Shown here in pieces: positions 28,560 to 47,912 of a stretch of 64,000 nt of DNA. The notes beneath the pieces were generated by a model that saw only the letters and a program-made list of their open reading frames with translations, ran no database searches and was not told the origin of the DNA. The DNA comes from a virus (Duplodnaviria; Caudoviricetes): positions 288,001 to 352,000 of the IMG/VR virus record IMGVR_UViG_3300014208_000024, one strand, 5' to 3'. Numbering within the stretch: position 1 is the first letter of the stretch; each line of letters starts with the position of its first letter. Position numbers and translations under genes: made by a program.

Positions 28560-28770
28560 CTCACTTTTAAATAAAATGTCCCTAAAAAAGGTGTTTTTCA
28601 GTGGTTTTAAATCGCTGGTTGGGGTGGCAAAAAAAATGTATGCGGTCTGGGACGGGGTATATTTAAGGGGTCTAAACTACCCTTATTATCGTGCCGAAGG
28701 GGTCTAATTAGTGGGTCTATTTAAGGGGTCTAATCTATATAGGGGGTTTAAATTAACCCCCTTATTCTTT
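28560..28770. repeat. G-rich non-coding repeat patch
   Basis: AAGGGGTCTAA x3 (two as TTTAAGGGGTCTAA) and related GGGGT words in an otherwise AT-rich genome. Confidence 0.55.
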
Positions 28771-28951: not shown

Positions 28952-29065
28952 AACTTTTGGTTTTAATTGGTTTATGGATCTATAAAGCAAATAAAAATAA
29001 AAAGTGGGAACGTACCACTTTATTAAATAATTTGCTTTATATACTCAACCAATAACTTTAACACT

Positions 29066-29506: not shown

Positions 29507-29650
29507 GGGAAAGGGGGCAACCCCTTTTTTTATTTTCTTTTTTTTAATTTCTGTTTTGTAGTAAACCAATAGACAAAAATACAAAAAGGTCAATTCCCAC
29601 TTTTTCAGAAAATTTGCTTTATATACTCACCAACCAACCAAACCAAAAAT

Positions 29651-29956: not shown

Positions 29957-30188
29957 AAGGTGTGAAAGCCGAAAAAAGGGGGTGTGAAAGCCCTCTTTTA
30001 TTTTTTTTTTAATTTTTTAAATTTCGGTATTGTCGTAAACCAACAAGCCAAACATCCAAAAATGGCAATTCCCACTTTTCCAGAAAATTTGCTTTATATA
30101 GTCACGTTCTTTCGGTAGTTAAAAAAAGCGATCACAGGGAAACAAAAAATTCCCACTTTTTCAGAAAATTCGCTTTATATACTCACAA

Positions 30189-30806: not shown

Positions 30807-31146
30807 CGAAAGAAAACGATCAGGGAGAGGGGGGCAGGTTGCCCCTCTTTTTTTTTCTTTTTTTTTAAAAACCTTTCCCTGATATGGTGGTTTACGAGCA
30901 AACCGAAATTTAAAAAAAAGTTTTTAAAAACTTTCCCTGACATAAACTTTCCCTTGCGTTTCCCTGTATATAGAAAACGTTCCCTTTAAAACGGTTTTTA
31001 GGCTATTTTACAGGCTTTTTTTTATTACTGAATGATATTTGATATGTTTCCCCGATCAAAACGCTTTAAAATGCTTTAAAATGTTTCCCCAAAAACGTTC
31101 CCTCTTTTTCAATTTATTTGCTTTATATATTTTAAATAATTTAATT

Positions 31147-31800: not shown

Positions 31801-32080
31801 ACCTTTCTCACTTTCCCAGAAAATTTGCTTTATATATCCATGAGAAAATAAATAAACAAACCAAAAAGGAATTTAAAATGCGAAAGTAAGTTTGTCTTTT
31901 CCTCTTAGTAATATTAAAATAGTAACTCGCACTCACAAGGTGCGGGAAAAACGTTTTTTATTTTGTTTTTTTAAATTTCTGTTTTGTCGTAAACCAATTA
32001 CAAAAAACTCCATAACTCTTTTTCCCTCTTTTTCATTTTATTTGCTTTATATATTCACAAACCAATTAAAACCAAAAGCT

Positions 32081-33738: not shown

Positions 33739-33807
33739 AAGAGGGGGCTTTCCCTCTTTTCCAGATAATTTGCTTTATATATTTACAAACCAATTAAAAC
33801 CAAAAAG

Positions 33808-34164: not shown

Positions 34165-34232
34165 AAAAGAGGGAACTTTCCCTCTTTTCTTTTTTATTTG
34201 CTTTATATATTTATAAACCAAAACTAATTTTT

Positions 34233-34457
34233 ATGAAAACAAATATTTTAAAATACAGTTTATACCTCATTTTTGTTTTAGCTTTAATTTCTAAAGTTGA
34301 CGGTTGGGGTGCAATTCTTTCAGCAGTAAAAGAGTTTTCGTCTTTTGTTTTATTTATGGCAGTTATCATCGCCTTTGTTGTTTTGCTTTATATAATGTTC
34401 AACAAATCAAAATCTCTCAAACGTTTTGTTGACGACAAAGATAATGAACTGAAATGA
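34233..34457 (+). CDS. Small two-TM membrane protein
   Basis: Two hydrophobic segments; start ATG 34233. Confidence 0.6.
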   Translation: MKTNILKYSLYLIFVLALISKVDGWGAILSAVKEFSSFVLFMAVIIAFVVLLYIMFNKSKSLKRFVDDKDNELK

Positions 34458-34521
34458 TCGTTTCCCACTTTTCAAAGAAATTTGCTTTATATAATCACAA
34501 ACCAATTAAAAACCAAAAATC

Positions 34522-34866
34522 ATGAAAAAAGCAAACATAGTATTTAATGACCAGAGAATACCATCGGAATATCTGAACACAATTCTCGTTGAAAATGTTA
34601 AAGATCTCATAAGCGCCCACAATTTTGTATTTGGATCTACATTCAGCGATTTTGCAAAAAAAGCATTAACAGGACTTAAAAAAACAAGCGATATAACATT
34701 CAGGATTGAAAGTTTAATAAGGAATGAAAATCTTGCCCCTCAAACAAAAATCTGCTTTATAAATCAATTAAAAGCTGTCCTTTCGGGTAATTTTATCAGA
34801 ATGAATAATGCAGGGGGTTACTTTGATTTTGACCCTAACAAAGCAACAATAACGAAATTAAAATAG
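34522..34866 (+). CDS. Hypothetical early protein
   Basis: Own promoter and terminator (34901-34930). Confidence 0.65.
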   Translation: MKKANIVFNDQRIPSEYLNTILVENVKDLISAHNFVFGSTFSDFAKKALTGLKKTSDITFRIESLIRNENLAPQTKICFINQLKAVLSGNFIRMNNAGGYFDFDPNKATITKLK

Positions 34867-35055
34867 GTTTTTTCATAGTTTAATTGTTTAAATTGGTTTG
34901 AAGGGGGGCTGGTTACCTCCCTTTTTTTTATTTTCTTTTTTTAAATTTCGGTTTGGTCGTAAACCATACCTTTTTGATTTTTCACCTGTGACTTCCCATG
35001 TTCCACTTTCTCAAATAATTTGCTTTATATACTCATAGCAAAAAACCATAAACAA

Positions 35056-35292
35056 ATGAAAACAATAGATAAAATTATAACCAAAGTAGATTGCAAATTC
35101 GGAGCGCCAATGGGAAGATATAATATAGGCAACAAGCCAACAAACAAAAGAGTTTTTGATTGTGCAGTCCCAATGAGTTGTGACGGTGCTTATGATAAAG
35201 GTGGGGCATATTTTGGGATTGGAAAACAATTAAGAGTTGAGTACACAAAAGATTTATCTTATGTGAAATTTTACAGGAGGGGAGAAAAATAA
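35056..35292 (+). CDS. Hypothetical early protein
   Basis: GAPMGR...YDKGGAYFG; start ATG 35056. Confidence 0.65.
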   Translation: MKTIDKIITKVDCKFGAPMGRYNIGNKPTNKRVFDCAVPMSCDGAYDKGGAYFGIGKQLRVEYTKDLSYVKFYRRGEK

Positions 35293-35347
35293 TTCCCACT
35301 TTTCAAAGAAATTTGCTTTATATACTCATAACCAAAAACCAAAACCA

Positions 35348-35539
35348 ATGACAAAAGAAAAAACTTATACAGGTGCTTATAAAGTAGTTCAAATTTTCAG
35401 AGTTTCTAAAAGGCGTAAAACTTTAAAGCGTGGTTTAACAAAAGAAGAAGCAATGAGGGTTGTTAACAGATACCCCAACAGTTCTCGGAGTATGGTTGTA
35501 TTTATGAAGCAATTTAGTGCTGATAAATATTTTGTTTAA
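35348..35539 (+). CDS. Small basic early protein
   Basis: Own promoter. Confidence 0.6.
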   Translation: MTKEKTYTGAYKVVQIFRVSKRRKTLKRGLTKEEAMRVVNRYPNSSRSMVVFMKQFSADKYFV

Positions 35540-35564
35540 CGGTTGTATAATAAAAAACAATTAA

Positions 35565-35951
35565 ATGAGATTCATTCTAAGACCATTTTGCATATTGATA
35601 GTAAAGTTTTTACAAAGAAGGTATAAACAAATAACTATTAAAAACAGGCACAATCAGACAAATCAGGTTTTATCAAAATTAAAACTGATACAATCAATTT
35701 TATATTATTTTAAAAGTCAATTTCATGCTTGGGGTTATTTTCACCCCGATTGTGGATGGAGCGAAAAAGATGAATTTAAGTTTAGGAAACTGTTTCCTAC
35801 AAAAGATTTTGAAGAGCTTGATTTAGTTGTTTTGCACAATCCTAATGCGATAACTTATTATCAGAATAGGATATATGACCTAACAAACGGAAAGAGCGTT
35901 AAATCCAGCGATATTGAGAAACAGTTAAGAAAGTGGAATGATTGGAATTAA
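35565..35951 (+). CDS. Hypothetical protein
   Basis: ORF. Confidence 0.5.
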   Translation: MRFILRPFCILIVKFLQRRYKQITIKNRHNQTNQVLSKLKLIQSILYYFKSQFHAWGYFHPDCGWSEKDEFKFRKLFPTKDFEELDLVVLHNPNAITYYQNRIYDLTNGKSVKSSDIEKQLRKWNDWN

Positions 35952-36003
35952 TCCCACTTTCTACAATAATTTGCTTTATATCCACAACCAAAACCTTAAA
36001 ATT

Positions 36004-36225
36004 ATGACTGAATTACAATTTATTCTTTTAGAAATTATTATTTTAATAATTATTTATCTTGGGTGTTTCTGTTTAATTTTTAAGTCAATGGTTTTTAATA
36101 CAGCAGAAGAAGAAATTAAAAACATGAAAATAAGCAATATAGTTGCTTTGATAGTAGTTTCAATCTGTGTTATTTGTATTTACATAAATTATCCGACATT
36201 CCCAATTTCCCACTTTCCCCAATAA
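36004..36225 (+). CDS. Small two-TM membrane protein
   Basis: Hydrophobic segments; start ATG 36004. Confidence 0.55.
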   Translation: MTELQFILLEIIILIIIYLGCFCLIFKSMVFNTAEEEIKNMKISNIVALIVVSICVICIYINYPTFPISHFPQ

Positions 36226-36261
36226 TTTGCTTTATATATTCATAACCAAAAATCAAAAGTC

Positions 36262-36480
36262 ATGATAGAATATCGCAAAAGATACAGTGAATCAACCACA
36301 CGTTCAACTTCACCCATAACAAAAAAGGGTCAGGCAATAACTGTTCGCAAAGGAAAAAAGAAATTTAAAGTTATAATCACGCACCCGAATTATGCTGGAA
36401 GCAATATAACTGAGGGGGATGCAAACGGAAAACATTATGTATGTTGGTTCAATTATGGTTCATGGTCTGTATCTAATTAA
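36262..36480 (+). CDS. Hypothetical early protein
   Basis: Own promoter. Confidence 0.6.
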   Translation: MIEYRKRYSESTTRSTSPITKKGQAITVRKGKKKFKVIITHPNYAGSNITEGDANGKHYVCWFNYGSWSVSN

Positions 36481-36534
36481 TTCCCACTTTTTATTTTAAT
36501 TTGCTTTATATATCCATAACCAAAAATAAAAGCC

Positions 36535-36771
36535 ATGCAATTAACTAAAGAAGAAAAAACAAATATATTCTGGTCGTTGCTTAAAGAATATCCCGAATTT
36601 GAAAGGAGCCGTAAACAAATGCCTTTAATTTTTAAAGGAGAAGAAAAAATATCAAAAATGATTAAAATCATTAATGATGGAGAAAAAAAAGCTTATGATT
36701 TGATCAAAAAGTTTGCTGATGAAATTGGAGAAAATATACCCGAATACAAGAATCCAAATTTGAGGGGGTAA
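36535..36771 (+). CDS. Hypothetical early protein
   Basis: Own promoter; leader identical to that of 36832. Confidence 0.6.
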   Translation: MQLTKEEKTNIFWSLLKEYPEFERSRKQMPLIFKGEEKISKMIKIINDGEKKAYDLIKKFADEIGENIPEYKNPNLRG

Positions 36772-36831
36772 TAATATTCCCACTTTCCCAGGAAATTTGC
36801 TTTATATATCCATAACCAAAAAATAAAAGCC

Positions 36832-37257
36832 ATGCCAAAATTTGAATTAAGATCAAACCAGTACATTCCTTATCGTGGAAAAAGATTACAAAGTGGGATG
36901 CCTGCCAGTGCTACATACTTTTATTTCGTAAATGAAAACGGAAAAGTTGTGGACTTACAAACATTAAAACCATATAAGGGAAAACAAATGAATCGTTATG
37001 CAATGCACGATAAAAAAGAGGCAAATTCTTTTCTTAAATTGATTAATAAAACTACAACTCACAAAGTTGAAAAGCCAAAGGGTACTTTTTATTCTGATTA
37101 TACCATAAAAGGTGATTGCTGTTATGCAATATTTGAAAACTGTGATGGAAGGGTTAATACAAAATTAGTTTGCAAAACAAAAAAAACGAATGACGATTGG
37201 AAAACTTTTAATATAAAGGAAACAAAAAGGAATTTATTTATAAATCTGGGAGAATAA
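36832..37257 (+). CDS. Hypothetical early protein
   Basis: Own promoter. Confidence 0.65.
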   Translation: MPKFELRSNQYIPYRGKRLQSGMPASATYFYFVNENGKVVDLQTLKPYKGKQMNRYAMHDKKEANSFLKLINKTTTHKVEKPKGTFYSDYTIKGDCCYAIFENCDGRVNTKLVCKTKKTNDDWKTFNIKETKRNLFINLGE

Positions 37258-37310
37258 ACTCTCCCACTTTTCTTTTTTATTTGCTTTATATATTCACAAA
37301 CCGCAAAGCT

Positions 37311-37688
37311 ATGTATAAAGTTTACAGATATGAAAGCCCTTATGATCAAACGGGGGTTTTTAATTGTAGCCTTTCAAAATTTCCTGATAAATACAAAGTT
37401 TCAAAATTGTGTGATAAAATTCATGGAGATCATATCGGAAATAAAGATCACCCCACTTTACAAACTGACGGGTTAGATTTTGCACTTGAAATGACTGGGT
37501 TTTTATGTGCTTGTAATAGCATAAAAGAATTATTGAATTGGTTTGATAAATACAATAAAAAACTTATTAAAAGCGGTTTTGTAATTGCTGAATATATTGT
37601 AATTGCAAAGTTTGACGGCAAATCTGGATTGCAATGTGTTTTCAATGAAAAGGCAATAATTGAAAGAAATGTTATTTCCACTTTTTAA
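37311..37688 (+). CDS. Hypothetical early protein
   Basis: Start ATG 37311. Confidence 0.65.
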   Translation: MYKVYRYESPYDQTGVFNCSLSKFPDKYKVSKLCDKIHGDHIGNKDHPTLQTDGLDFALEMTGFLCACNSIKELLNWFDKYNKKLIKSGFVIAEYIVIAKFDGKSGLQCVFNEKAIIERNVISTF

Positions 37689-37731
37689 TAAAATTTGCTT
37701 TATATACTTATAACTTTAAAACCTTTCCCCA

Positions 37732-38001
37732 ATGAAAAAAACAATGTATTTAACGGTCAATGTTTCTGAAGGAAACGCTGAACATATTGGAACGATGAAA
37801 ATTACATCGGCAGGTCAAATTGAAGGTAAATTAAAAGAAATGTTAGATTCACATTTTGATGCCAATGTTGAAGTTAAAAACGATACACCGTTTCAATTAG
37901 AAGATTTTCTCTACGGCAGAACCGTTGAGCTTAAAGTGAAAGTTGATTCTGAAATAGACAGCATTGAAGAAATTATTATTCAGGAAACATGGTTATATTA
38001 A
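37732..38001 (+). CDS. Small acidic early protein
   Basis: Own promoter; D/E-rich C-half. Confidence 0.65.
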   Translation: MKKTMYLTVNVSEGNAEHIGTMKITSAGQIEGKLKEMLDSHFDANVEVKNDTPFQLEDFLYGRTVELKVKVDSEIDSIEEIIIQETWLY

Positions 38002-38057
38002 ACTCCCACTTTCCCCAATAATTTGCTTTATATACTTATAAAACCAAAACTTTCCCA

Positions 38058-38213
38058 ATGGAAGAATTGAAAAAGAAAGTAATTGCAAAGTTAATTACAT
38101 ACGGCAACAATGCAGAAGAAGTGAAAATTATGGTTGCAAAACACTTTGAATATGCTGCAAGTAATTATAAGACAGTGAAGACAATTTGTGAATGTATCAG
38201 AACAATATATTAA
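38058..38213 (+). CDS. 51-aa early protein (not in ORF track)
   Basis: ATG right after promoter 38003; MEELKKKVIAKLITYGNN... Confidence 0.6.
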   Translation: MEELKKKVIAKLITYGNNAEEVKIMVAKHFEYAASNYKTVKTICECIRTIY

Positions 38214-38232
38214 AACCTTAGAGCTTAACAAA

Positions 38233-38391
38233 ATGAATATAGAGAAAAGAAAAAAAAGCAATGCAGCTCACAAAGTTTTATCGCTAATGGATAAAGATTT
38301 TTCTTATGAAAAAGCTTTGAGAAAAGTTTTAAAATCAGATAAAAGATTAAACAAAGTAAAGCTTGAAAAAGAACTGGACTTTTATATTTAA
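38233..38391 (+). CDS. Small basic protein
   Basis: Start ATG 38233. Confidence 0.5.
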   Translation: MNIEKRKKSNAAHKVLSLMDKDFSYEKALRKVLKSDKRLNKVKLEKELDFYI

Positions 38392-38449
38392 AACTCCCAC
38401 TTTTATTTTTTATTTGCTTTATATATCCATAACCAAAAACCACAACAAA

Positions 38450-38659
38450 ATGAAAAAATTAAGAGTATTTGAATTTTCCCTTGATGTTGACTATGGAGGT
38501 GGTATAATGTTAATCGCTGCCAAAGATACAGATCGTGCAATAGAATTGTGTCCAGTGCTTAGTCGTTTTCATGGTACTTGGGTATATTCAGGTGAACATA
38601 CAGAATTGTCCTATAAAGGAAAAGAGGGTGAAATTTTGAGTTTTACAAGAGTGGATTGA
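38450..38659 (+). CDS. Hypothetical early protein
   Basis: Start ATG 38450; leader identical to that of 38717. Confidence 0.6.
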   Translation: MKKLRVFEFSLDVDYGGGIMLIAAKDTDRAIELCPVLSRFHGTWVYSGEHTELSYKGKEGEILSFTRVD

Positions 38660-38716
38660 ATTTCCACTTTTCCCAATAATTTGCTTTATATATCCATAAC
38701 CAAAAACCACAACAAA

Positions 38717-39028
38717 ATGAAAAAAGATACTTACAAAACAGATGTGATTTTCAGAGTTCTCACTATTGGTGATATAACAGAAGTCACAGCATTGTTTCCT
38801 CATGATGTTGAAACGCCTGAAGGTCATATAAGCTGTTATGCTCACGTTGGTCAGCATGGGTCAGCAGATTACAGATATTGCGTATCAAAAAGCCGTCTTG
38901 CCACAAAAGAAGAATACAGGGATCTCAAAAACGAACTTGAAAACGCTGTGGGATATAACCTGAATATTGTTCAAAAACAGAACAGAACAAAATATCTGAA
39001 AAGTTATTACGAAACAAGAAAAAGATAA
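38717..39028 (+). CDS. Hypothetical early protein
   Basis: VIFR...ALFP...SCYAHVGQH; start ATG 38717. Confidence 0.65.
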   Translation: MKKDTYKTDVIFRVLTIGDITEVTALFPHDVETPEGHISCYAHVGQHGSADYRYCVSKSRLATKEEYRDLKNELENAVGYNLNIVQKQNRTKYLKSYYETRKR

Positions 39029-39127
39029 TCTGGGTTCATATTGGTTTGGTTTGATCGGGGAGGAGTGGTTTCCTCCCCTCTTTTTTAAATAATTTGCTTT
39101 ATATATTCATAACCAAAAATTAAACAA

Positions 39128-39583
39128 ATGGGACACGATATATCCGCTTTTAAAATAGAATCAAAAAACGATGACAATATTGGTTTTCGTGAAGGAGAAG
39201 AAATTTCTTATGCTTGTTTTTCCGCTGGGAACATTGTGGGTCAATATCTTTTTTATGAAAGCCTAAATGCCCAAAAATTTAACGCTGGGTGCAGTGGTGG
39301 TGGTGGTCGGGATGTTTATACTATTGACCAAATAAAAACCGCCAAATCAAAGCTAAACTACATTTCCTCAGATGATAATGTGAGTGCAGAAATTAAAAGG
39401 TATTCATTTGATGAAAAACACAATATTTTTAAAAATCTTATTGATAGGCTTAATGGCAACCCCGAAAGTGCTTTATTAAAAGGAGATGCTGAAAGAATTA
39501 AACATGAAATTAAAAAGATCAATCAGTTTTATGATAATATTTTAAACAGCGGAGAGGAAACAATTATGATAGGGTTTTATTGA
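39128..39583 (+). CDS. Hypothetical early protein
   Basis: Own promoter; terminator 39571-39600. Confidence 0.65.
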   Translation: MGHDISAFKIESKNDDNIGFREGEEISYACFSAGNIVGQYLFYESLNAQKFNAGCSGGGGRDVYTIDQIKTAKSKLNYISSDDNVSAEIKRYSFDEKHNIFKNLIDRLNGNPESALLKGDAERIKHEIKKINQFYDNILNSGEETIMIGFY

Positions 39584-39694
39584 AAACCCTTTTTTATTTT
39601 CTTTTTTTAAATTTCTGTTTTGTCGTAAACCCATATACAAAATTCCCCCACAAGACAACTTCCCACTTTTTCAAATAATTTGCTTTATATACTC

Positions 39695-39882
39695 ACGAAG
39701 CGAAAGGAAAAACAGGGTTTCAGGTTTTTGTTACTTAGAGTTTTTGTGCAGTCAGCTTCAAAGGGTTAAATTCCCTTGCAAAACTCACTTGAAAGTTAAA
39801 ACCTCCTGATCTGGTTAAACCCCAGATAACTTCGATGGTGTGAAAACCGAAAAAAAGAGGGGTGAAATCCTCTTTTTTTATT
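39695..39882 (+). ncRNA. Candidate structured small RNA (~140 nt plus terminator)
   Basis: Promoter-to-terminator unit with no ORF; nested helices CGAAG/CTTCG, AGGTTTT/AAAACCT, GAGTTTT/AAAACTC, AAGGG/CCCTT, TCTGG/CCAGA. Confidence 0.6.
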
Positions 39883-39936
39883 TCCCACTTTTTCAAATAA
39901 TTTGCTTTATATACTCACAAACCAACAATTAAAACA

Positions 39937-40194
39937 ATGGCAACAAAAAAATTAAGAATTTCAACGATAATGGGTGATTACAATTTAGGATTGTTTCAAA
40001 ACAAAATTGAATTTAAAGAACCTTTAAGCTCTTTTGAAAAAGATGAATTAAAAGCAAGTGTTTTGCACAGGGAATTTAAAACAATTGAAGAACATGATGC
40101 CTATTTGACTGCTTTAAAAGATGCAAGTGAATATCTTAACATAAGAGTTTTGACAGCAGAAGAAGTGAAAAAAATTAACAGAATGAGAATATGA
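39937..40194 (+). CDS. Hypothetical early protein
   Basis: Own promoter. Confidence 0.6.
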   Translation: MATKKLRISTIMGDYNLGLFQNKIEFKEPLSSFEKDELKASVLHREFKTIEEHDAYLTALKDASEYLNIRVLTAEEVKKINRMRI

Positions 40195-40373
40195 AAGAAA
40201 TTAATTTAACCATTGAAGGAACTTTCACAACTCAGGAGGAACTTGAAAAGTATCTAAATGCAGTTTTGGAAAGCGTGAAATTGGCAAACAGCCTTAAACT
40301 CCCTTTTCACAATTTCTGTGGACACGATAATGACAGAAAAAATGAAATTTTCGCAACCGCAAAACACAAATAA
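40191..40373 (+). CDS. Small hypothetical protein
   Basis: ATGA overlap with the upstream gene. Confidence 0.55.
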   Translation: MKEINLTIEGTFTTQEELEKYLNAVLESVKLANSLKLPFHNFCGHDNDRKNEIFATAKHK

Positions 40374-40374
40374 T

Positions 40375-40644
40375 ATGGCAAATTTTAAACCACAAGTCAC
40401 AATTATAACAAGTGAAACCCGTAGGGAATATGCAAACAGTTTTGGCACAAAAAACCCCTATAAAACAATTTCTTACCCCACCTATAAAGATCTTTTAAAA
40501 AACATTAAAAGGCACTTAGAGGAAAACCTTGAAGATACTGTATCCGTATCCCGATCAAAGCGGGGCGAATGGGGTGAATGGTTTGAAATATGGAAATTAA
40601 ATTGGCTCAATAAACCTGAAATTATAAAACAGGGCTGGATGTAA
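40375..40644 (+). CDS. Hypothetical protein
   Basis: Start ATG 40375. Confidence 0.6.
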   Translation: MANFKPQVTIITSETRREYANSFGTKNPYKTISYPTYKDLLKNIKRHLEENLEDTVSVSRSKRGEWGEWFEIWKLNWLNKPEIIKQGWM

Positions 40645-40704
40645 TTCTCCCTCTTTTCCAAATAATTTGCTTTATATACTCATAACCAATTAATTTTACA
40701 CAAT

Positions 40705-40932
40705 ATGAAAATAACATTTGAACCATCAGAAGAACAAAGTGGATCGTGGATATTCCATTACGGAAATGTTGAGCAAAACGGCAAAGAGTTTGAATTTAGC
40801 CTACTTGAAATGAAAGATGGAAATTCTGATTCAAAGGCATTTGAATTAACATGGTGCGAAGAAACACCAGACAATGCAATAGAAATTGAAAAAAAGGTTA
40901 TTAGGGAATTTGAAGTATTACAAATTGCTTAA
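40705..40932 (+). CDS. Small acidic early protein
   Basis: Own promoter; E/D-rich. Confidence 0.65.
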   Translation: MKITFEPSEEQSGSWIFHYGNVEQNGKEFEFSLLEMKDGNSDSKAFELTWCEETPDNAIEIEKKVIREFEVLQIA

Positions 40933-40990
40933 CTCTCCCCTCTTTTCCAAATAATTTGCTTTATATACTCATAACCAAAACCACAACAAA

Positions 40991-41314
40991 ATGGAAAGAA
41001 GAAAACTACCAGAAATTCCAAGCGAATTTATCGAACCATATTTGACAAAATTCATGGGAAATATAATAGAATTTGCGTCAACTGCTTGCACAGAAGAAGA
41101 ACTAAAAGAAAGAAATGGTGTGGGTTGGACTATTGCTGAATTAAAACAATGGATTAAAGGTGTTGAAATGTTTGTTTCTTGGACTTGTGGTATTCATGCC
41201 AGACTTGCAATGTCAAATGAATTTTACAACAGATGGAAATATATGCCTGATGATGAAATTAAAAGAATTTGCAAAAAGGTTATGGATAAAATTTATAGTG
41301 ATCCCACTTTTTAA
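40991..41314 (+). CDS. Hypothetical early protein
   Basis: Own promoter. Confidence 0.6.
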   Translation: MERRKLPEIPSEFIEPYLTKFMGNIIEFASTACTEEELKERNGVGWTIAELKQWIKGVEMFVSWTCGIHARLAMSNEFYNRWKYMPDDEIKRICKKVMDKIYSDPTF

Positions 41315-41359
41315 AATAATTTGCTTTATATACTCATAACCAATTAAACAAAAAAAATT

Positions 41360-41677
41360 ATGCCAAAGAAAAAACTTTCTCCAGCTGATGAAAAATTCAT
41401 CGCAAAATTTCTCAATGCTGATGGCAAACTGAATTTTGATGCTGCTAAAATCTTTCGTGAGAATCGTTTTACTGGTGAGAAATTTGAAGTTGATCCTATT
41501 TGTGCCAAAGCAATTGATTTCGTCTTTGCAGTTGAAAGAGCAATGCAATTTGGGGATGCAGCACTCAAAAGAGTTCACCCCGATCTTAAAATGAGCAATG
41601 CAGTCATGAATTTTGACAGAGCCAGGATGCTCGTTTGCAAACTCGATACAAAAGTTTATATGGGAATTTTGGACTAA
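41360..41677 (+). CDS. Hypothetical early protein
   Basis: Own promoter. Confidence 0.65.
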   Translation: MPKKKLSPADEKFIAKFLNADGKLNFDAAKIFRENRFTGEKFEVDPICAKAIDFVFAVERAMQFGDAALKRVHPDLKMSNAVMNFDRARMLVCKLDTKVYMGILD

Positions 41678-41750
41678 ATGAAAAGGGGGAACTTTCCCTC
41701 TTTTTTGTTTTATTTGCTTTATATACTCACTAACCAAAAAAAATAAAAAA

Positions 41751-42252
41751 ATGCACAATCTTCACTTTGTAATTACAACAGCAGACAGCCCCGAAGATGC
41801 CTGTAATAATGTGGAAACATTGATTTCCGATTTCGGGAATGAAAACAACTGGCGTACTGTTTGTGGGTGCGTTTCAGAAAAAAAATGAGGTTTACAATGC
41901 AAGTGATGGCCGCTATGAACCAAAAAACACCGAATACACAACCATTGCAAAGATTAATAAATGTGTAAGAGGTTGGATGAAAGAATGTTTTTATGGTGAT
42001 ACTGCAAAGAAAAAACTTGCAGAAGCAAAGGGAAAAATTAACTTAAACAAATGGACAAGTTCTGAATTGTTCTCCCTTAAAAGCCTTGCAACTCATCTTG
42101 ACCAAACTATTGCTTTCAGGAAAAAGAAATTTAATGTTCTTGAAAATGAATTTTTCGCTTGGAGTTTTGATGAATATGGAGTTACACAAGACAATAACTC
42201 AAATGATGATGAAGGTCAAAAATATGTCGTGTTTATTGATATGCATAGTTAA
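41751..42252 (+). pseudogene. Early gene frameshifted at an A8 run (41878-41885)
   Basis: ATG 41751 follows the promoter; removing one A joins MHNLHF...CGCVSE to KNEVYNASDG...IDMHS. Confidence 0.65.
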
Positions 42253-42345
42253 AACATTGAAAATCAGAGTATTAATAGTTAAAAAGGGATTTTCCCTCTT
42301 TTTCTTTTTATTTGCTTTATATACTTGTAACAAAAAACAATCATT

Positions 42346-42642
42346 ATGAAAGCTACTTGCAAAACCAGTTTTTTAGCCCTTAAAGGAATTATTGACATTG
42401 GGGATGTTGTTGAAATTGAATCTATACTTTCAACAGAAGATAAAGTTTTGAATACGAAAATAATAGTTACAAGGGATGAAAACGAACGTATAATATCTTC
42501 AGTTGTTGTCAGTGATGTTGTAAGTCCCAAAGGTAGCTTTGAAGGTTACAGAATAAAATCAAAAAACGGGAATACATATTCAGATAAAGAAATTTTAGGA
42601 ATGATCGAATATAAACCACTGTCTGAAATTTTTGAAAAATAA
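42346..42642 (+). CDS. Hypothetical early protein
   Basis: Own promoter. Confidence 0.6.
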   Translation: MKATCKTSFLALKGIIDIGDVVEIESILSTEDKVLNTKIIVTRDENERIISSVVVSDVVSPKGSFEGYRIKSKNGNTYSDKEILGMIEYKPLSEIFEK

Positions 42643-42698
42643 TTCTCCCACTTTTCAAAATAATTTGCTTTATATAATCACTAACCAAAACAATAATC

Positions 42699-42992
42699 AT
42701 GGAAACAAAAACGAAATCGGGATTTAGTGTAATCCAAATGGTAGAAATACCTGAAACCTTTTTGAGAAAAGGAGTTTTAAAAGAATTATCTGGGCGTGAA
42801 ATTTACACTGATACAGATGATGAACTGAATGAACAAATTTTCGCTGGTAATGTGTTTGAAACAATAGCCTGTGACCAAGCTGAAATACCCGAAAATTCAC
42901 CCCTCAAATTAAGCGCTGAAGACTTAAAACAAGTCGATGAACTTGCAGAAGAATTGGGAGAATATGAACTTATCAGAATAAACAAAATATAA
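42699..42992 (+). CDS. Small highly acidic early protein
   Basis: Own promoter and terminator; D/E-rich. Confidence 0.65.
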   Translation: METKTKSGFSVIQMVEIPETFLRKGVLKELSGREIYTDTDDELNEQIFAGNVFETIACDQAEIPENSPLKLSAEDLKQVDELAEELGEYELIRINKI

Positions 42993-43161
42993 TTTTTGGT
43001 TTGGTGAAGCAAGTGAAGGGAGGAAAGTGGTTCCTCCTTTTTTATTTTCTTTTTTTTAAATTTCTGTTTTGTCGTAAACCTCCCTATGTAAACTTTCCCT
43101 GGCAGGATTCCCACTTTCCAAAATAATTTGCTTTATATAGTTATAACCAAAAAATAAAGAA

Positions 43162-43698
43162 ATGAAAAAAACATCATTAACTGAAAAACAGAAAAAGATA
43201 GTTTCTGATCTGATCGCTGAATTTGAGGGCATAAACGCTCAGAAAAAATGCGACCACAATGACCTGTTTGCTTATATTGATAACACACTCAATGAGCGCA
43301 AAAGAATACAGGAAGAAATTATCCAGCATAACAAATTAATGTGTGCAAAACACCTTGAATACCTTGCTTCTATTGTTGGTGATGTTCGTAAAATGTGCGA
43401 AAGATATAATGTTTCGGTTGATTTTTCAAAAAGTATTTCGGGGACTATGAGAATAAGCTTTTATTTTTACAAAAGCAAAGATATGTTTGAAAAGTACGGA
43501 GAAAAAAGAGTGGGGTTTGATTGTTCACAACATGTTGATGTACTTATTGAAAACAGTAGAATTGAAGATGTAATGAAATACGGAGAAATTGTCGAATTAA
43601 GATGGAAAAAATCAAATTATGGATATGACATTGTAAAAAGAGAAGATTTCCCCAAATTTCTTGCCGACAAAATCATCGAAGTAAACAAAACTTTTTAA
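43162..43698 (+). CDS. Hypothetical early protein
   Basis: Own promoter. Confidence 0.65.
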   Translation: MKKTSLTEKQKKIVSDLIAEFEGINAQKKCDHNDLFAYIDNTLNERKRIQEEIIQHNKLMCAKHLEYLASIVGDVRKMCERYNVSVDFSKSISGTMRISFYFYKSKDMFEKYGEKRVGFDCSQHVDVLIENSRIEDVMKYGEIVELRWKKSNYGYDIVKREDFPKFLADKIIEVNKTF

Positions 43699-43768
43699 AA
43701 GAAAAGTGGGAACTCTCCCACTTTTTTATTATATTTGCTTTATATAGTCATAACCAATAATTAAGACA

Positions 43769-44719
43769 ATGGCAAAAAGAAATAATTTTTTCAATAAAAG
43801 AAAAAATAACTATTACGATTTTGGAGATAACATTTGGGGTCAAATATTATCCACAAGTGGAATAAATGGTTTTATGCACGATATGTTTGTAGACATGAGC
43901 AGACGTGAACACCAAGAAAAACTGAAAAAAGCTGGAATCGTATTAAACGAAGAACATAATCTCTTTGGAGTGCCAAGCAAAAATATTCCATTTAAGTATA
44001 TTAAAATTGATTTCATTCATGACAAATTTTATGTTTGTTATGTTAAAATGGATTATGTTAAAATGGATATTGACGATGATTTTCAAATGGTTACTGTTTG
44101 TAAAGAAGATGGAACAGAAATGTTTACAGTTGAAGAAAAGAGTTTTGATTACCTGCACTTTGAAGATTTTTTTCTTGTAAAAGAAAGAAAAGAAAAAAAC
44201 TATATGCTTCATGGTCTTTGTGGCACAATTAAAACAAAACACGTTTTCAGACCAATGTTTCATTCTAAATTTGATAAAGATTCTGATTTCTGTATTCTGG
44301 GGAATAATGATTTCTCTGGTGAATGTGTTATAAACAAAAAAGGTGAAGTTGTTTTTGAAAAGAAAGATTACAATAGCCTTTATCTTCATGGAAACATTTT
44401 AAGCACAGGAAGTAAAAATTATAACCTGTTTACGGGGGAATTAATTTGTGATAAAAGTTATCACAGTTCCCTCGATATAAAAGAATTTATGTTTATTCAG
44501 GTTGATGTTAATCAGGTTTATAAGATCAACAAAAAAACCTGTGAATTTGAAGTCTTTGGAGAACCAAAACAAGCCCCTAAGTTAAACGATATTAAAATTT
44601 GTGAACACTCAGACACCACAGTTGCAGAAGTTCTCCCCAAACTCATTAAACAGGGCAGAAATGATATTTGTCAATGTGGTTCAGGTAAGAAGTTTAAAAA
44701 CTGTTGCATGAAAAAGTAA
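43769..44719 (+). CDS. Hypothetical protein with C-terminal SEC-C motif
   Basis: KQGRNDICQCGSGKKFKNCC. Confidence 0.75.
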   Translation: MAKRNNFFNKRKNNYYDFGDNIWGQILSTSGINGFMHDMFVDMSRREHQEKLKKAGIVLNEEHNLFGVPSKNIPFKYIKIDFIHDKFYVCYVKMDYVKMDIDDDFQMVTVCKEDGTEMFTVEEKSFDYLHFEDFFLVKERKEKNYMLHGLCGTIKTKHVFRPMFHSKFDKDSDFCILGNNDFSGECVINKKGEVVFEKKDYNSLYLHGNILSTGSKNYNLFTGELICDKSYHSSLDIKEFMFIQVDVNQVYKINKKTCEFEVFGEPKQAPKLNDIKICEHSDTTVAEVLPKLIKQGRNDICQCGSGKKFKNCCMKK

Positions 44720-44756
44720 CTCTCCCTCTTTTTAAAATAATTTGCTTTATATCTAC

Positions 44757-45203
44757 ATGGAAGAAAAAAAAGAAATAGGCATTAGGGCTCCTCTCCCCGA
44801 AATTGATCCCTTAAAAGATGTTACTATTATTGGCGCTGGTCATGTTGGCGTTGGAAAATCTTCTCTCATACAAGTTGAGGCAGCAATAAGAATGATGGCA
44901 GAAGGAAAAAAGGTAATTGTTATCACAGGTGATACAACTCCAAACATTGATCTTTCAAAAATTGATTTGGATAGCATTTCAATTCCTGTTTTAAAAAAGA
45001 TAAGTGAATTTCCAAGTCCAGTAATTTACGACCATGATACTCCAAACAAATTGGAAATGTTAAGGAATTTAAAACTTTCTCCTGAGCAAATTGATTACTT
45101 CCAAAATTCACCACCACAAAGATTGGAAGGGGAAAAACAAGAAGATTATAAAACTCGTAGAATGTTAAATAAATTAATTATAAAATATAGGGGGCAATTC
45201 TAA
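44757..45203 (+). CDS. Hypothetical protein with a nucleotide-binding-like loop
   Basis: IIGAGHVGVGKSS; start ATG 44757. Confidence 0.55.
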   Translation: MEEKKEIGIRAPLPEIDPLKDVTIIGAGHVGVGKSSLIQVEAAIRMMAEGKKVIVITGDTTPNIDLSKIDLDSISIPVLKKISEFPSPVIYDHDTPNKLEMLRNLKLSPEQIDYFQNSPPQRLEGEKQEDYKTRRMLNKLIIKYRGQF

Positions 45204-45346
45204 TGATTCTATTAAATAACAGTCAAAGTTTATTGCAACTTCCTGTGGAATATGCTTATTTTGTAGGTATTTTAATCGTTTTATTTTTAATTGGATTGCC
45301 TATAAGAATTTGGCTTTACAGAAGAAAGACAGGAAAAAATCAATAG
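45203..45346 (+). CDS. 47-aa single-TM protein (not in ORF track)
   Basis: TAATG coupling; FVGILIVLFLIGLPIRIWL followed by a basic tail. Confidence 0.55.
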   Translation: MILLNNSQSLLQLPVEYAYFVGILIVLFLIGLPIRIWLYRRKTGKNQ

Positions 45347-45384
45347 TTCTTCCACTTTTTTAAAAAATTTGCTTTATATAGTTG

Positions 45385-45775
45385 TAACAAAAAAAACGGG
45401 TTATCCGTATAAAATATTGGGAAAGGGTCGCTAAGGTTCCACCCCAAAACTGCGAAAGCGGTTCCGCAATGCCCAAAGCTTGCTTTATGGGAACCACCGA
45501 CAGCCCGTCCCAAAGGTTCATTGAGAATATAAAAAAATCTCCTATAACAGCCGAGTACGGTTGGTTGGAAAATGGAGATTCTGTCCGTACAACAGTTTTG
45601 GGATAAATGCTCATAATTAATAATCCCGCCGACATTTGAATGATCGGTTATGCCCCGTATGAAGCCGAGACCCTTAAGTGGCTCTGGCAATGACTGGGGC
45701 GCTAATAATCCTGAATAAAGAGCAATCCCGATGAACCGAAGGGGGGTAGGCAGTTCGCCTGTTCCCTCTTTTTTT
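45385..45775 (+). ncRNA. Candidate large structured ncRNA (~350 nt plus terminator)
   Basis: GC-richer, lacks a credible ORF, sits between a class-1 promoter and a terminator, many complementary segments including a GAAA tetraloop and long-range or pseudoknot pairings. Confidence 0.7.
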
Positions 45776-45830
45776 ATTCCCACTTTTATAAATAATTTGC
45801 TTTATATACTCATAACCAAAAATTAAGGTC

Positions 45831-46031
45831 ATGGAAACAAAAAGTTTAGACAAAAAAAAGAAATCAATAAAAGTAAAAGAAATGTATAAATTTCTTGGGA
45901 AGTTAATTAAAGAAGGAAAAGGCGACTATAAAATGAAAATTGACTTAAATGAATATTATGTAAGTTTAAAACGAATTTCAGTAATTGATGAATCAACTGT
46001 TTGTGAAAACAAAACTATAAATGTTTCATAA
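45831..46031 (+). CDS. Small hypothetical early protein
   Basis: Own promoter. Confidence 0.6.
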   Translation: METKSLDKKKKSIKVKEMYKFLGKLIKEGKGDYKMKIDLNEYYVSLKRISVIDESTVCENKTINVS

Positions 46032-46105
46032 TTCCCACTTTTGTAAATAATTTGCTTTATATACTTGAAAGAAATTTTTATTAACTAACACTAAATCAAT
46101 TAATT

Positions 46106-46578
46106 ATGGGCTTCACGCACTACTTCTACAGAAAAGAAAAGTTAGATCAGAAAACATTTGATCTCTTTGTTAAAGATGTAAAAGCAATCTTCGCTGATAC
46201 CAAAAGGCAAAAAAGAATTGCAATAGTTAACGGCTGGGGTGAAATGGGAACTCAACCAATAGCAAACTCAGAAGAAATTTGTTTCAATGGAGTTCAAAAC
46301 ACAAAAACAAATGTTGACAACAGCCATGAAACAATGTACATTTCACGTGTTGCAAACAAGAGCATTTTTACACCTGATTCCCCCTCGCTTTCGGGTTTTG
46401 CAAAACAGCAAGGAAGCCTTATGACAGGGTTGTAACAGCGGTTCTTATAGCATTTAAACATCATTTTCCTCATGCACAAATTCATTCTGACGGTGATATT
46501 GAAGATTTTGAGCTTGGCCGCAAAACTTGTACAAAACTCTTTGGTTACGGTTTTGGCTTTGAACTTGACAAAGATTAA
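46106..46578 (+). pseudogene. Early gene frameshifted at a C5 run (46380-46384)
   Basis: Adding one C joins ...TPDS to PLAFGFCKTARKPYD.VVTAVLIAFKHHF...SDGD...DKD*. Confidence 0.7.
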
Positions 46579-46775
46579 AAAGATTGGGTTCACCGTTATC
46601 CCCCCCTGGAAAACGGTTTGGTTATGATGGCTCGGAGTGGTTAACCGAGCCTTTTTTATTTTCTTTTTTTAAATTTCGGTTTGGTCGTAAACCCCATATC
46701 CACAATTCTGGTCCAGACAATTCCCACTTTTTCATTTAATTTGCTTTATATAGTCACAAACAAAAAATAATTTAT

Positions 46776-47798: not shown

Positions 47799-47912
47799 AT
47801 AAAAGGGGGGTTCTCTCCCTCTTTTTCTTTTTATTTGCTTTATATAGTTATAAATAGTAAAAAATTTCATGTATTACGAAATAATTTATAAACCACTAAA
47901 AAACAAATAGTT

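Follow-up and report, generated by a model that had tools for sequence, protein, structure and literature searches.

Why should the short untranslated sequence between a stop codon and its terminator be written as the reverse complement of the leader of the same gene? This question is raised by the early gene block of an uncultured phage known from a single contig of 372,283 bp, of which bases 288001-352000 (IMG/VR record IMGVR_UViG_3300014208_000024) were analysed; these 64,000 nucleotides (nt) are called the window below, and positions are numbered from its first letter and refer to the plus strand unless stated otherwise. Between 33 and 47 kb, protein genes are mainly arranged in runs with several promoters each, and the four terminators at the ends of these runs are preceded by tracts complementary to the leader shared by the early genes. 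This four-site feature was confirmed to be real, non-random and beyond composition, with strong complementarity at sites 1 and 2 and short seeds at sites 3 and 4. The tracts are tentatively read as RNA-level anti-leaders, which may serve as a brake on early genes through RNA-RNA pairing in cis, in trans or both; we put the probability of this reading, based on sequence and modelled folding, at roughly 0.45.

Early promoters and the common leader

The early block lies wholly inside the window. Scanning the whole genome with the pattern TT[TC]GCTTTATA[TC][ACT], which was built around the core TTTGCTTTATATA, recovered one promoter 58 times, always on the plus strand and between 29031 and 61738. 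Alignment of these copies revealed a long module, tCCCACTTTT-N8-TTTGCTTTATATA-nt-CA-(T/C)AACCAAAA, and in most copies an ATG follows 21-28 nt past the core. From the spacing of the conserved CA to the TATATA element, we infer that the early mRNAs start at this CA. It had been suggested in a preliminary description of the locus that AACCA recurs in most early leaders, and this pentamer is indeed present in 31 of the 49 early leaders at constant distance from the core, compared with just 1% of non-early genes that carry it upstream; AACCA therefore marks the early class. Most early genes continue directly into the next promoter module, so true 3' untranslated regions (3'UTRs) are rare.

The gene 34522-34866 may serve as an example. 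Its early promoter module, one of the 58, occupies 34463-34493 (upstream element CCCACTTTT, then the core TTTGCTTTATATA) and is followed at 34497-34531 by the leader and the start of the gene, ACAAACCAATTAAAAACCAAAAATC-ATG-AAAAAAG, whose putative 5' end is the conserved CA and which pairs with site 1 in the fold predicted below.

Anti-leader tracts and their terminators

At site 1, the anti-leader (34867-34900) makes up the entire 3'UTR of this gene, from the stop codon to an intrinsic terminator at 34901-34932 with the loop CTGGTTA and a subsequent U-run. As originally noticed, when reverse-complemented it agrees with the gene's own leader and start (34498-34531) in 25 of 34 positions, all in a single register; anywhere on the minus strand of the 372-kb genome, that leader has no better match, only equally good ones. 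Two blocks, CAAACCAATT of 10 nt and ATGAAAAAA of 9 nt, agree without mismatch and are identically spaced, and the 10-mer occurs just nine times in the genome, four of them in the local leader subfamily. The shorter tracts that had been listed after other genes were all found again: TTCATATTGGTTTGGTTTG at site 2 (39035-39053), which includes the complement of AUG, TTTTTGGTTTGGTG at site 3 (42993-43006) and, at site 4, 46617-46627, delimited here as GGTTTGGTTATGA at 46615-46627 and overlapping the last codons of a possible 51-aa open reading frame (ORF), 46472-46627. Their terminators lie at 39057-39086 (loop GTGGTT, with a U-run that extends into the next promoter module), 43015-43047 (containing AGTGGTT) and 46629-46657 (loop AGTGGTTAA), respectively.

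Altogether, 21 intrinsic terminators were listed in the early block. Within the 34 nt upstream of each hairpin, TTGGTT occurs five times, at exactly four of the 21 terminators, compared with an expectation of 0.26 (Poisson 9e-6; binomial by window 1e-4). The hairpins had also been said to carry TGGTT, complementary to AACCA; this holds for all four sites and for no other terminator of the block, and the chance that the two sets of four coincide is 1 in 5985. Nowhere else in the 372 kb is a TTGGTT tract combined with a terminator that has a [GC]TGGTT hairpin. Alignment of the four modules revealed an invariant GGTTTG (extended to GGTTTGGT in three) and the invariant loop TGGTT, with stems that differ, namely GGGGGG/CCTCCC, GGGGAGGA/TCCTCCCC, GGGAGGAA/TTCCTCC and GGCTCGG/CCGAGCC at sites 1 to 4; the first three are of a common GGGRGG type and the fourth is unrelated. 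Most terminators adjoin the stop codon, spacers of at least 20 nt, where present, are largely anti-leader, and the tracts always sit exactly between the stop codon and the terminator stem.

Complementarity beyond composition

Duplex energies were computed against the 49 early leaders, using dinucleotide shuffles and 13 other terminators as controls. Plain Hamming matching of leaders to the minus strand was dropped, being swamped by A-rich sequence, and was replaced by these energies and by motif counts. Averaged over the 49 leaders, the four tracts reach -10 to -12.5 kcal/mol, compared with -3 to -7 kcal/mol for the 13 control terminators. The preliminary description had made its case dependent on composition-matched shuffles, and all four tracts outpair their own shuffles (z -2.4 to -3.8, p <= 0.01; site 2 -2.4, site 3 -2.7, site 4 -3.5). 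The site 1 duplex reaches -24.5 kcal/mol compared with -15.3 +/- 2.3 kcal/mol in its shuffles. Among the 13 control terminators, none beats its shuffles by z-score, and one is nominally different at p 0.04. An unbiased scan of 4138 windows across the whole 33-kb early block placed site 1 at rank 1 and site 2 at ranks 2-3, about five standard deviations from the mean; site 4 came 13th and site 3 20th.

Predicted pairing of leaders and tails

All pairing reported here was predicted at thermodynamic equilibrium. For the site 1 mRNA at full length (~436 nt), the ground state is predicted to be a fold in which leader nucleotides 3-35, including the AUG, pair with the 3'UTR with a probability of 0.9-1, and the 1148-nt transcript from the promoter at 33769 is predicted to fold likewise. 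At site 2, the transcript from the promoter at 38680 is predicted to pair about 14 leader nucleotides, again including the AUG, with a probability of 0.8-0.99. The tracts of sites 3 and 4 would each pair with the first 9-10 nt of one transcript of their own block; at site 4 this is the transcript from the promoter at 45796, whose first 9 nt pair with a probability of ~0.9, and at site 3 the cis pairing sum is a modest 9.2. Control terminators mostly give cis pairing sums of 0-3, and only sites 1 (22) and 2 (13-15) top every control. The 5'-3' fold-back originally proposed for the early mRNAs is predicted at sites 1 and 2 with the AUG included; for sites 3 and 4 the proposal found no support, as their predicted cis pairing is no better than that of some control terminators. 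A fold-back check of the gene for a DUF932 protein showed nothing notable.

When 3'UTRs were folded in isolation, the tracts were unpaired in three of the four, and the minimum-energy fold of site 4 buries its tract in an alternative structure. The best partner of site 1 is the local leader subfamily CAAACCAATTAAAACC, that of sites 2 and 3 is a distant leader (promoter 29613), and the 5' end found most often, CATAACCAAA, is the one that site 4 matches.

At sites 1, 3 and 4, the complementarity extends to the putative extreme 5' end of the mRNA. The pairing may hence be real and stabilising, such that a 5'-3' panhandle beside the terminator hairpin would keep 5'-end-dependent RNases from reaching the 5' end; the interaction between the 5'UTR and 3'UTR of the Bacillus subtilis hbs mRNA is a precedent (PMC5737220). 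The duplex also covers the AUG at sites 1 and 2, where it should inhibit initiation in the manner discussed below, and the 5' end in question depends on the assumed transcription start. Stabilisation is thus considered improbable.

Translation initiation and a possible brake on early genes

In the whole genome, motifs resembling the Shine-Dalgarno (SD) sequence precede 1.8% of long ORFs, under the background of 5.5%. The regions upstream of ORFs are A-rich, with ~65% A at positions -13 to -10, and the dominant stop codon is TAA. Together, these features point to a host with SD-independent initiation, for example a member of the Bacteroidota, for which an SD-poor and A-rich upstream pattern is the typical form of translation initiation. 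Since the genome lacks SD sequences, masking of the leader should block translation.

In the preferred reading, that of anti-leaders braking the early genes, early mRNAs would start at the conserved CA just past the core with 5' ends reading A(U/C)AACCAA, and transcripts halting at the four block-closing terminators would end in an unpaired (U)UGGUUUG(GU), followed by a hairpin with a UGGUU loop and a U-tail. In the cis mode, the tail would pair with the early leader as a 5'-3' panhandle, which at sites 1 and 2 would also cover the AUG; in the trans mode, the tail would be released as a stable fragment and pair with early leaders. Initiation without an SD sequence should need an open A-rich leader, so that pairing would lower translation of the early class, and the leader-tail duplex may in addition form a double-stranded RNA target for cleavage. 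Early gene expression would thereby carry its own brake. The analysis shows the sequences, their excess over expectation, their restriction to four terminators and the predicted pairings; the point at which transcription starts, the 3' ends, possible processing and the direction of the effect are all inferred.

Several observations weigh against such a brake. Because translation begins co-transcriptionally, when the 3' end has yet to be made, only later rounds could be limited by a lock in cis. Five control promoter-terminator combinations at three terminators reach cis pairing sums of 6-9, matching sites 3 and 4 (~9), and G/T-rich coding windows score near these two sites in the scan of the block. 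Both tracts are short, 8-12 nt, and cover only the 5'-terminal part of the leader. At site 1, only one of the nine mismatches, as counted by eye, is a G-U wobble. The sites show no significant preference for leaders of their own block: combining the ranks of the best such leaders gives p ~0.2, and only site 1 clearly prefers its own block; the complementarity is therefore to the leader class and not to a site's own block. Finally, the four modules may be paralogous, because three of the four stems are alike, and hence would not represent four independent events.

The control transcription units with sums of 6-9 also bear on chance as an explanation, in which G/T-rich tracts beside U-rich terminators simply pair with A-rich leaders, as many U-rich segments do. 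The shuffle tests, the block-wide ranking, the enrichment of TTGGTT and its exclusive link with TGGTT loops all disfavour it, leaving chance very improbable.

A more specific possibility is that the four tails, produced by cleavage or termination, constitute a phage family of small RNAs (sRNAs). Through the UUGGUUUG seed and the UGGUU loop, these would bind the 5' end common to some 30-50 early mRNAs and thereby shut down translation of the entire early class. The preliminary description had already considered sRNAs derived from the 3'UTR and acting on many early mRNAs at once; the layout, with a seed directly upstream of an intrinsic terminator, and the multi-leader duplex energies are consistent with this, and a family in the full sense is nonetheless considered quite unlikely.

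Two observations near these sites concern candidate RNAs. A core-like sequence with two mismatches, TCTGCTTTATAAA, lies at 34751-34763 inside the coding region, ~115 nt upstream of site 1, and may yield a short tail RNA, being the only lead to such an RNA, or be a matter of chance. In the RNA from the promoter at 39679, a tract at 39712-39741 is complementary to the leaders (rank 21 of 4138), and this RNA could be a trans-acting anti-leader. The latter belongs to a set of promoter-to-terminator cassettes without a credible ORF (30088-30168, 31824-31965, 39679-39890 and 45368-45775), which are candidate early non-coding RNAs.

Repeated junctions and copied modules

Following three of the four sites (1, 3 and 4) is a repeat, F2, that consists of a T-rich run and the 23-bp box AAATTTC(G/T)GTTT(G/T)GTCGTAAACC (AAATTTCKGTTTKGTCGTAAACC). 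The block holds 12 near-identical 42-nt copies, one of them inverted (30889-30915); the others end at 29567, 30041, 31995, 33052, 34965, 39631, 43080, 46693, 57822, 61626 and 61692. After site 1, F2 spans 34925-34965 with a T-rich tract and the box AAATTTCGGTTTGGTCGTAAACC, including another GGTTTGGT; after site 3, it spans 43039-43080 in the variant CTGTTTTGTCG; and after site 4, it spans 46652-46693 and again contains GGTTTGGT. The copies mostly lie 45-48 nt upstream of the core of the first promoter after a terminator, with two at 54 and 66 nt. A role of F2 as a promoter for a phage extracytoplasmic function (ECF) sigma factor was rejected, as the one occurrence of GAAAC-N15-17-CGTA in the window (59426) lies outside F2.

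The terminators are also joined to promoters. At 34165-34188, 41680-41705, 43700-43727, 47801-47825 and other places, the 3' arm of a terminator with its T-run constitutes the promoter upstream element TCCC(A/T)CTTTT; the arm doubles as a promoter element, and thus the terminator and the next promoter form one fused unit.

Such an architecture lends itself to another explanation, namely that cassette recombination copied a single terminator module to all four sites, or that these are scars of inverted leader segments, with leader complementarity that was inherited and has no regulatory effect. The block is a cassette array of the PeSL type, a known recombination substrate in T4-like phages (PMC2839356, PMC4122927), and the neighbouring F2 is clearly a spreading repeat. 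The GGGRGG-type stems shared by sites 1-3 would suit copying, sites 1 and 2 resemble an inverted 'leader plus ATG', and inverted modules do occur, as seen in the inverted F2 and in a minus-strand early-type promoter with a matching leader (28991-28979). By contrast, relics of minus-strand cassettes would have had to lose the promoter core, the most conserved part, four times and yet keep the leader; on the minus strand of the whole genome no exact or near-exact early core was found, the sole close copy being the one at 28991-28979 with one mismatch. Site 4 has an unrelated stem and still keeps the GGTTTGGT tract and the TGGTT loop, and the constant position between stop codon and stem stands out in a compact genome in which most other terminators adjoin the stop codon. 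The related concern in the preliminary description, that the tracts might be decayed starts of former minus-strand genes, became less likely in view of the early-class specificity of AACCA and of the minus-strand scan. Copying without function is the main rival of the anti-leader reading and is on the whole regarded as somewhat unlikely.

The same modules raise the possibility of a protein site. Five of the eight plus-strand copies of GGTTTGGT in the genome lie in terminator/F2 modules, including F2 boxes past the U-run, compared with 0.5 expected in the block. GGTTTGG or TGGTT may accordingly be a DNA or RNA site for a protein, either an early-class repressor that also binds AACCAAA past the promoters or a termination or roadblock factor, with no RNA-RNA pairing; a binder of double-stranded DNA would read leader and anti-leader as one site in opposite orientations. 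No candidate protein was identified, however, most F2 copies have TGTTTTG in place of GGTTTGGT, and the complementarity of site 1 spans 34 nt including the AUG and the A-run, well past a short protein site. A protein site therefore seems hardly likely.

Genes upstream of the sites and other elements of the block

The proteins encoded upstream of sites 1-3 have 114, 103 and 97 aa, and at site 4 the 51-aa ORF is doubtful; none of the four has a match in Pfam or PHROG. The ORF 46472-46627, which is hydrophobic in its N-terminal half, lacks its own promoter, contains further leader-complementary tracts at 46536-46565, and may instead be a long non-coding 3'UTR. The analogy with type I toxin mRNAs drawn in the preliminary description was abandoned, as was the hok/Sok-like reading in general: the genes of 97-114 aa encode no small (<~60 aa) hydrophobic toxin, the site 1 product, the only one read for this feature, lacks a long hydrophobic stretch, and no gene for an antisense antitoxin RNA is evident, since inside the block there is no minus-strand early core and a scan for sigma-70-type sites gave no excess over shuffles. 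Opposite the anti-leaders of sites 1 and 2, but not of sites 3 and 4, the minus strand has mini-ORFs of 13 and 10 codons, respectively, as judged by eye; these were likewise rejected as genes. A T-box or another known RNA family was rejected too, Rfam giving only tRNAs in the window.

At the left edge of the early block, the minus-strand early-type promoter (28979-28991) is the only one of its kind; it faces away from the first plus-strand promoter, and the 57-aa ORF that it drives runs leftwards from 28951. The end of this minus-strand transcription unit has no clear anti-leader or terminator. Downstream of the 57-aa ORF, at ~28660-28740, the minus strand has TTAGACCCCTTAAATA twice in full and once in part (TTAGACCCCTT), repeats that look like iterons or an array of binding sites. 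An exact core without the upstream element was observed at 34382-34394, within the ORF 34233-34457, and may be due to chance.

Relatives of the early block were not found by megablast against phages, by searching viral contigs for the promoter and F2 patterns or for three early proteins, or among genome contigs. The promoter pattern gave 71 single, unrelated matches in metagenome contigs, one of which was examined and is clearly unrelated. A search with the site 1 protein returned only itself (an identical protein is reported on a second contig), and tblastn with the DUF932 protein returned only distant actinophage homologues.

Comparison with known systems

Like the PeSL cassettes of T4-type phages (PMC2839356, PMC4122927), the block is an array of small early genes with repeated terminator/promoter junctions, which are potential recombination points; its 58 promoter modules include several fused to the preceding hairpin. 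The promoter sequence differs from that given there. If the tracts were merely copied junk, this case would show cassette recombination creating convincing pseudo-regulatory complementarity.

In hok-type mRNAs, a 5'-3' fold-back (fbi/tac) keeps the full-length mRNA translationally inert (PMC9841398). Long-range pairing of the 5' and 3' ends is likewise predicted for site 1. Unlike hok, the phage locus has no small hydrophobic toxins, no evident antisense antitoxin RNA and no sign of a 3' processing switch.

In the base-pairing sRNAs derived from 3'UTRs in enterobacteria, for instance CpxQ, DapZ and SdhX, a single-stranded seed is immediately followed by the hairpin of an intrinsic terminator and a U-tail. 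The phage tails have the same order of seed, terminator and U-tail but show no sign of processing, a chaperone or an internal promoter; their targets would be the phage's own early mRNAs, unlike the host regulon addressed by the enterobacterial sRNAs. The early shut-off of T4 by RegA and RegB is based on proteins, and an sRNA family would represent its RNA counterpart in a host that initiates without SD pairing. The transcriptome of a giant Pseudomonas phage was reported to contain sRNAs, and sRNA roles in phages were called mostly unexplored (PMC11512511). A limited literature search found no paper on a class-wide anti-leader in a phage.

The closest described mechanism, by analogy, is the interaction between the 5'UTR and 3'UTR of the icaR mRNA of Staphylococcus aureus, in which an anti-SD motif in the 3'UTR pairs with the SD sequence of the same mRNA (PMC3868564). 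As in icaR, sites 1 and 2 hold a 3'UTR motif complementary to the initiation region of their own mRNA, and the pairing is predicted to block initiation and could produce a double-stranded RNA substrate. Unlike icaR, where an anti-SD motif meets the SD sequence of a single gene, the phage has no SD sequence to mask, and the target would be an A-rich leader and AUG common to ~50 phage genes; moreover, the phage tract adjoins the terminator, is present at four block ends, and is known here from sequence and folding predictions. If the tails do mask the leaders, they would offer a simple viral way to limit a whole gene class in time, written into four terminators and needing no dedicated regulator gene, and phages would join the short list of bacterial-type mRNAs regulated, like icaR, by contact between their 5'UTR and 3'UTR.

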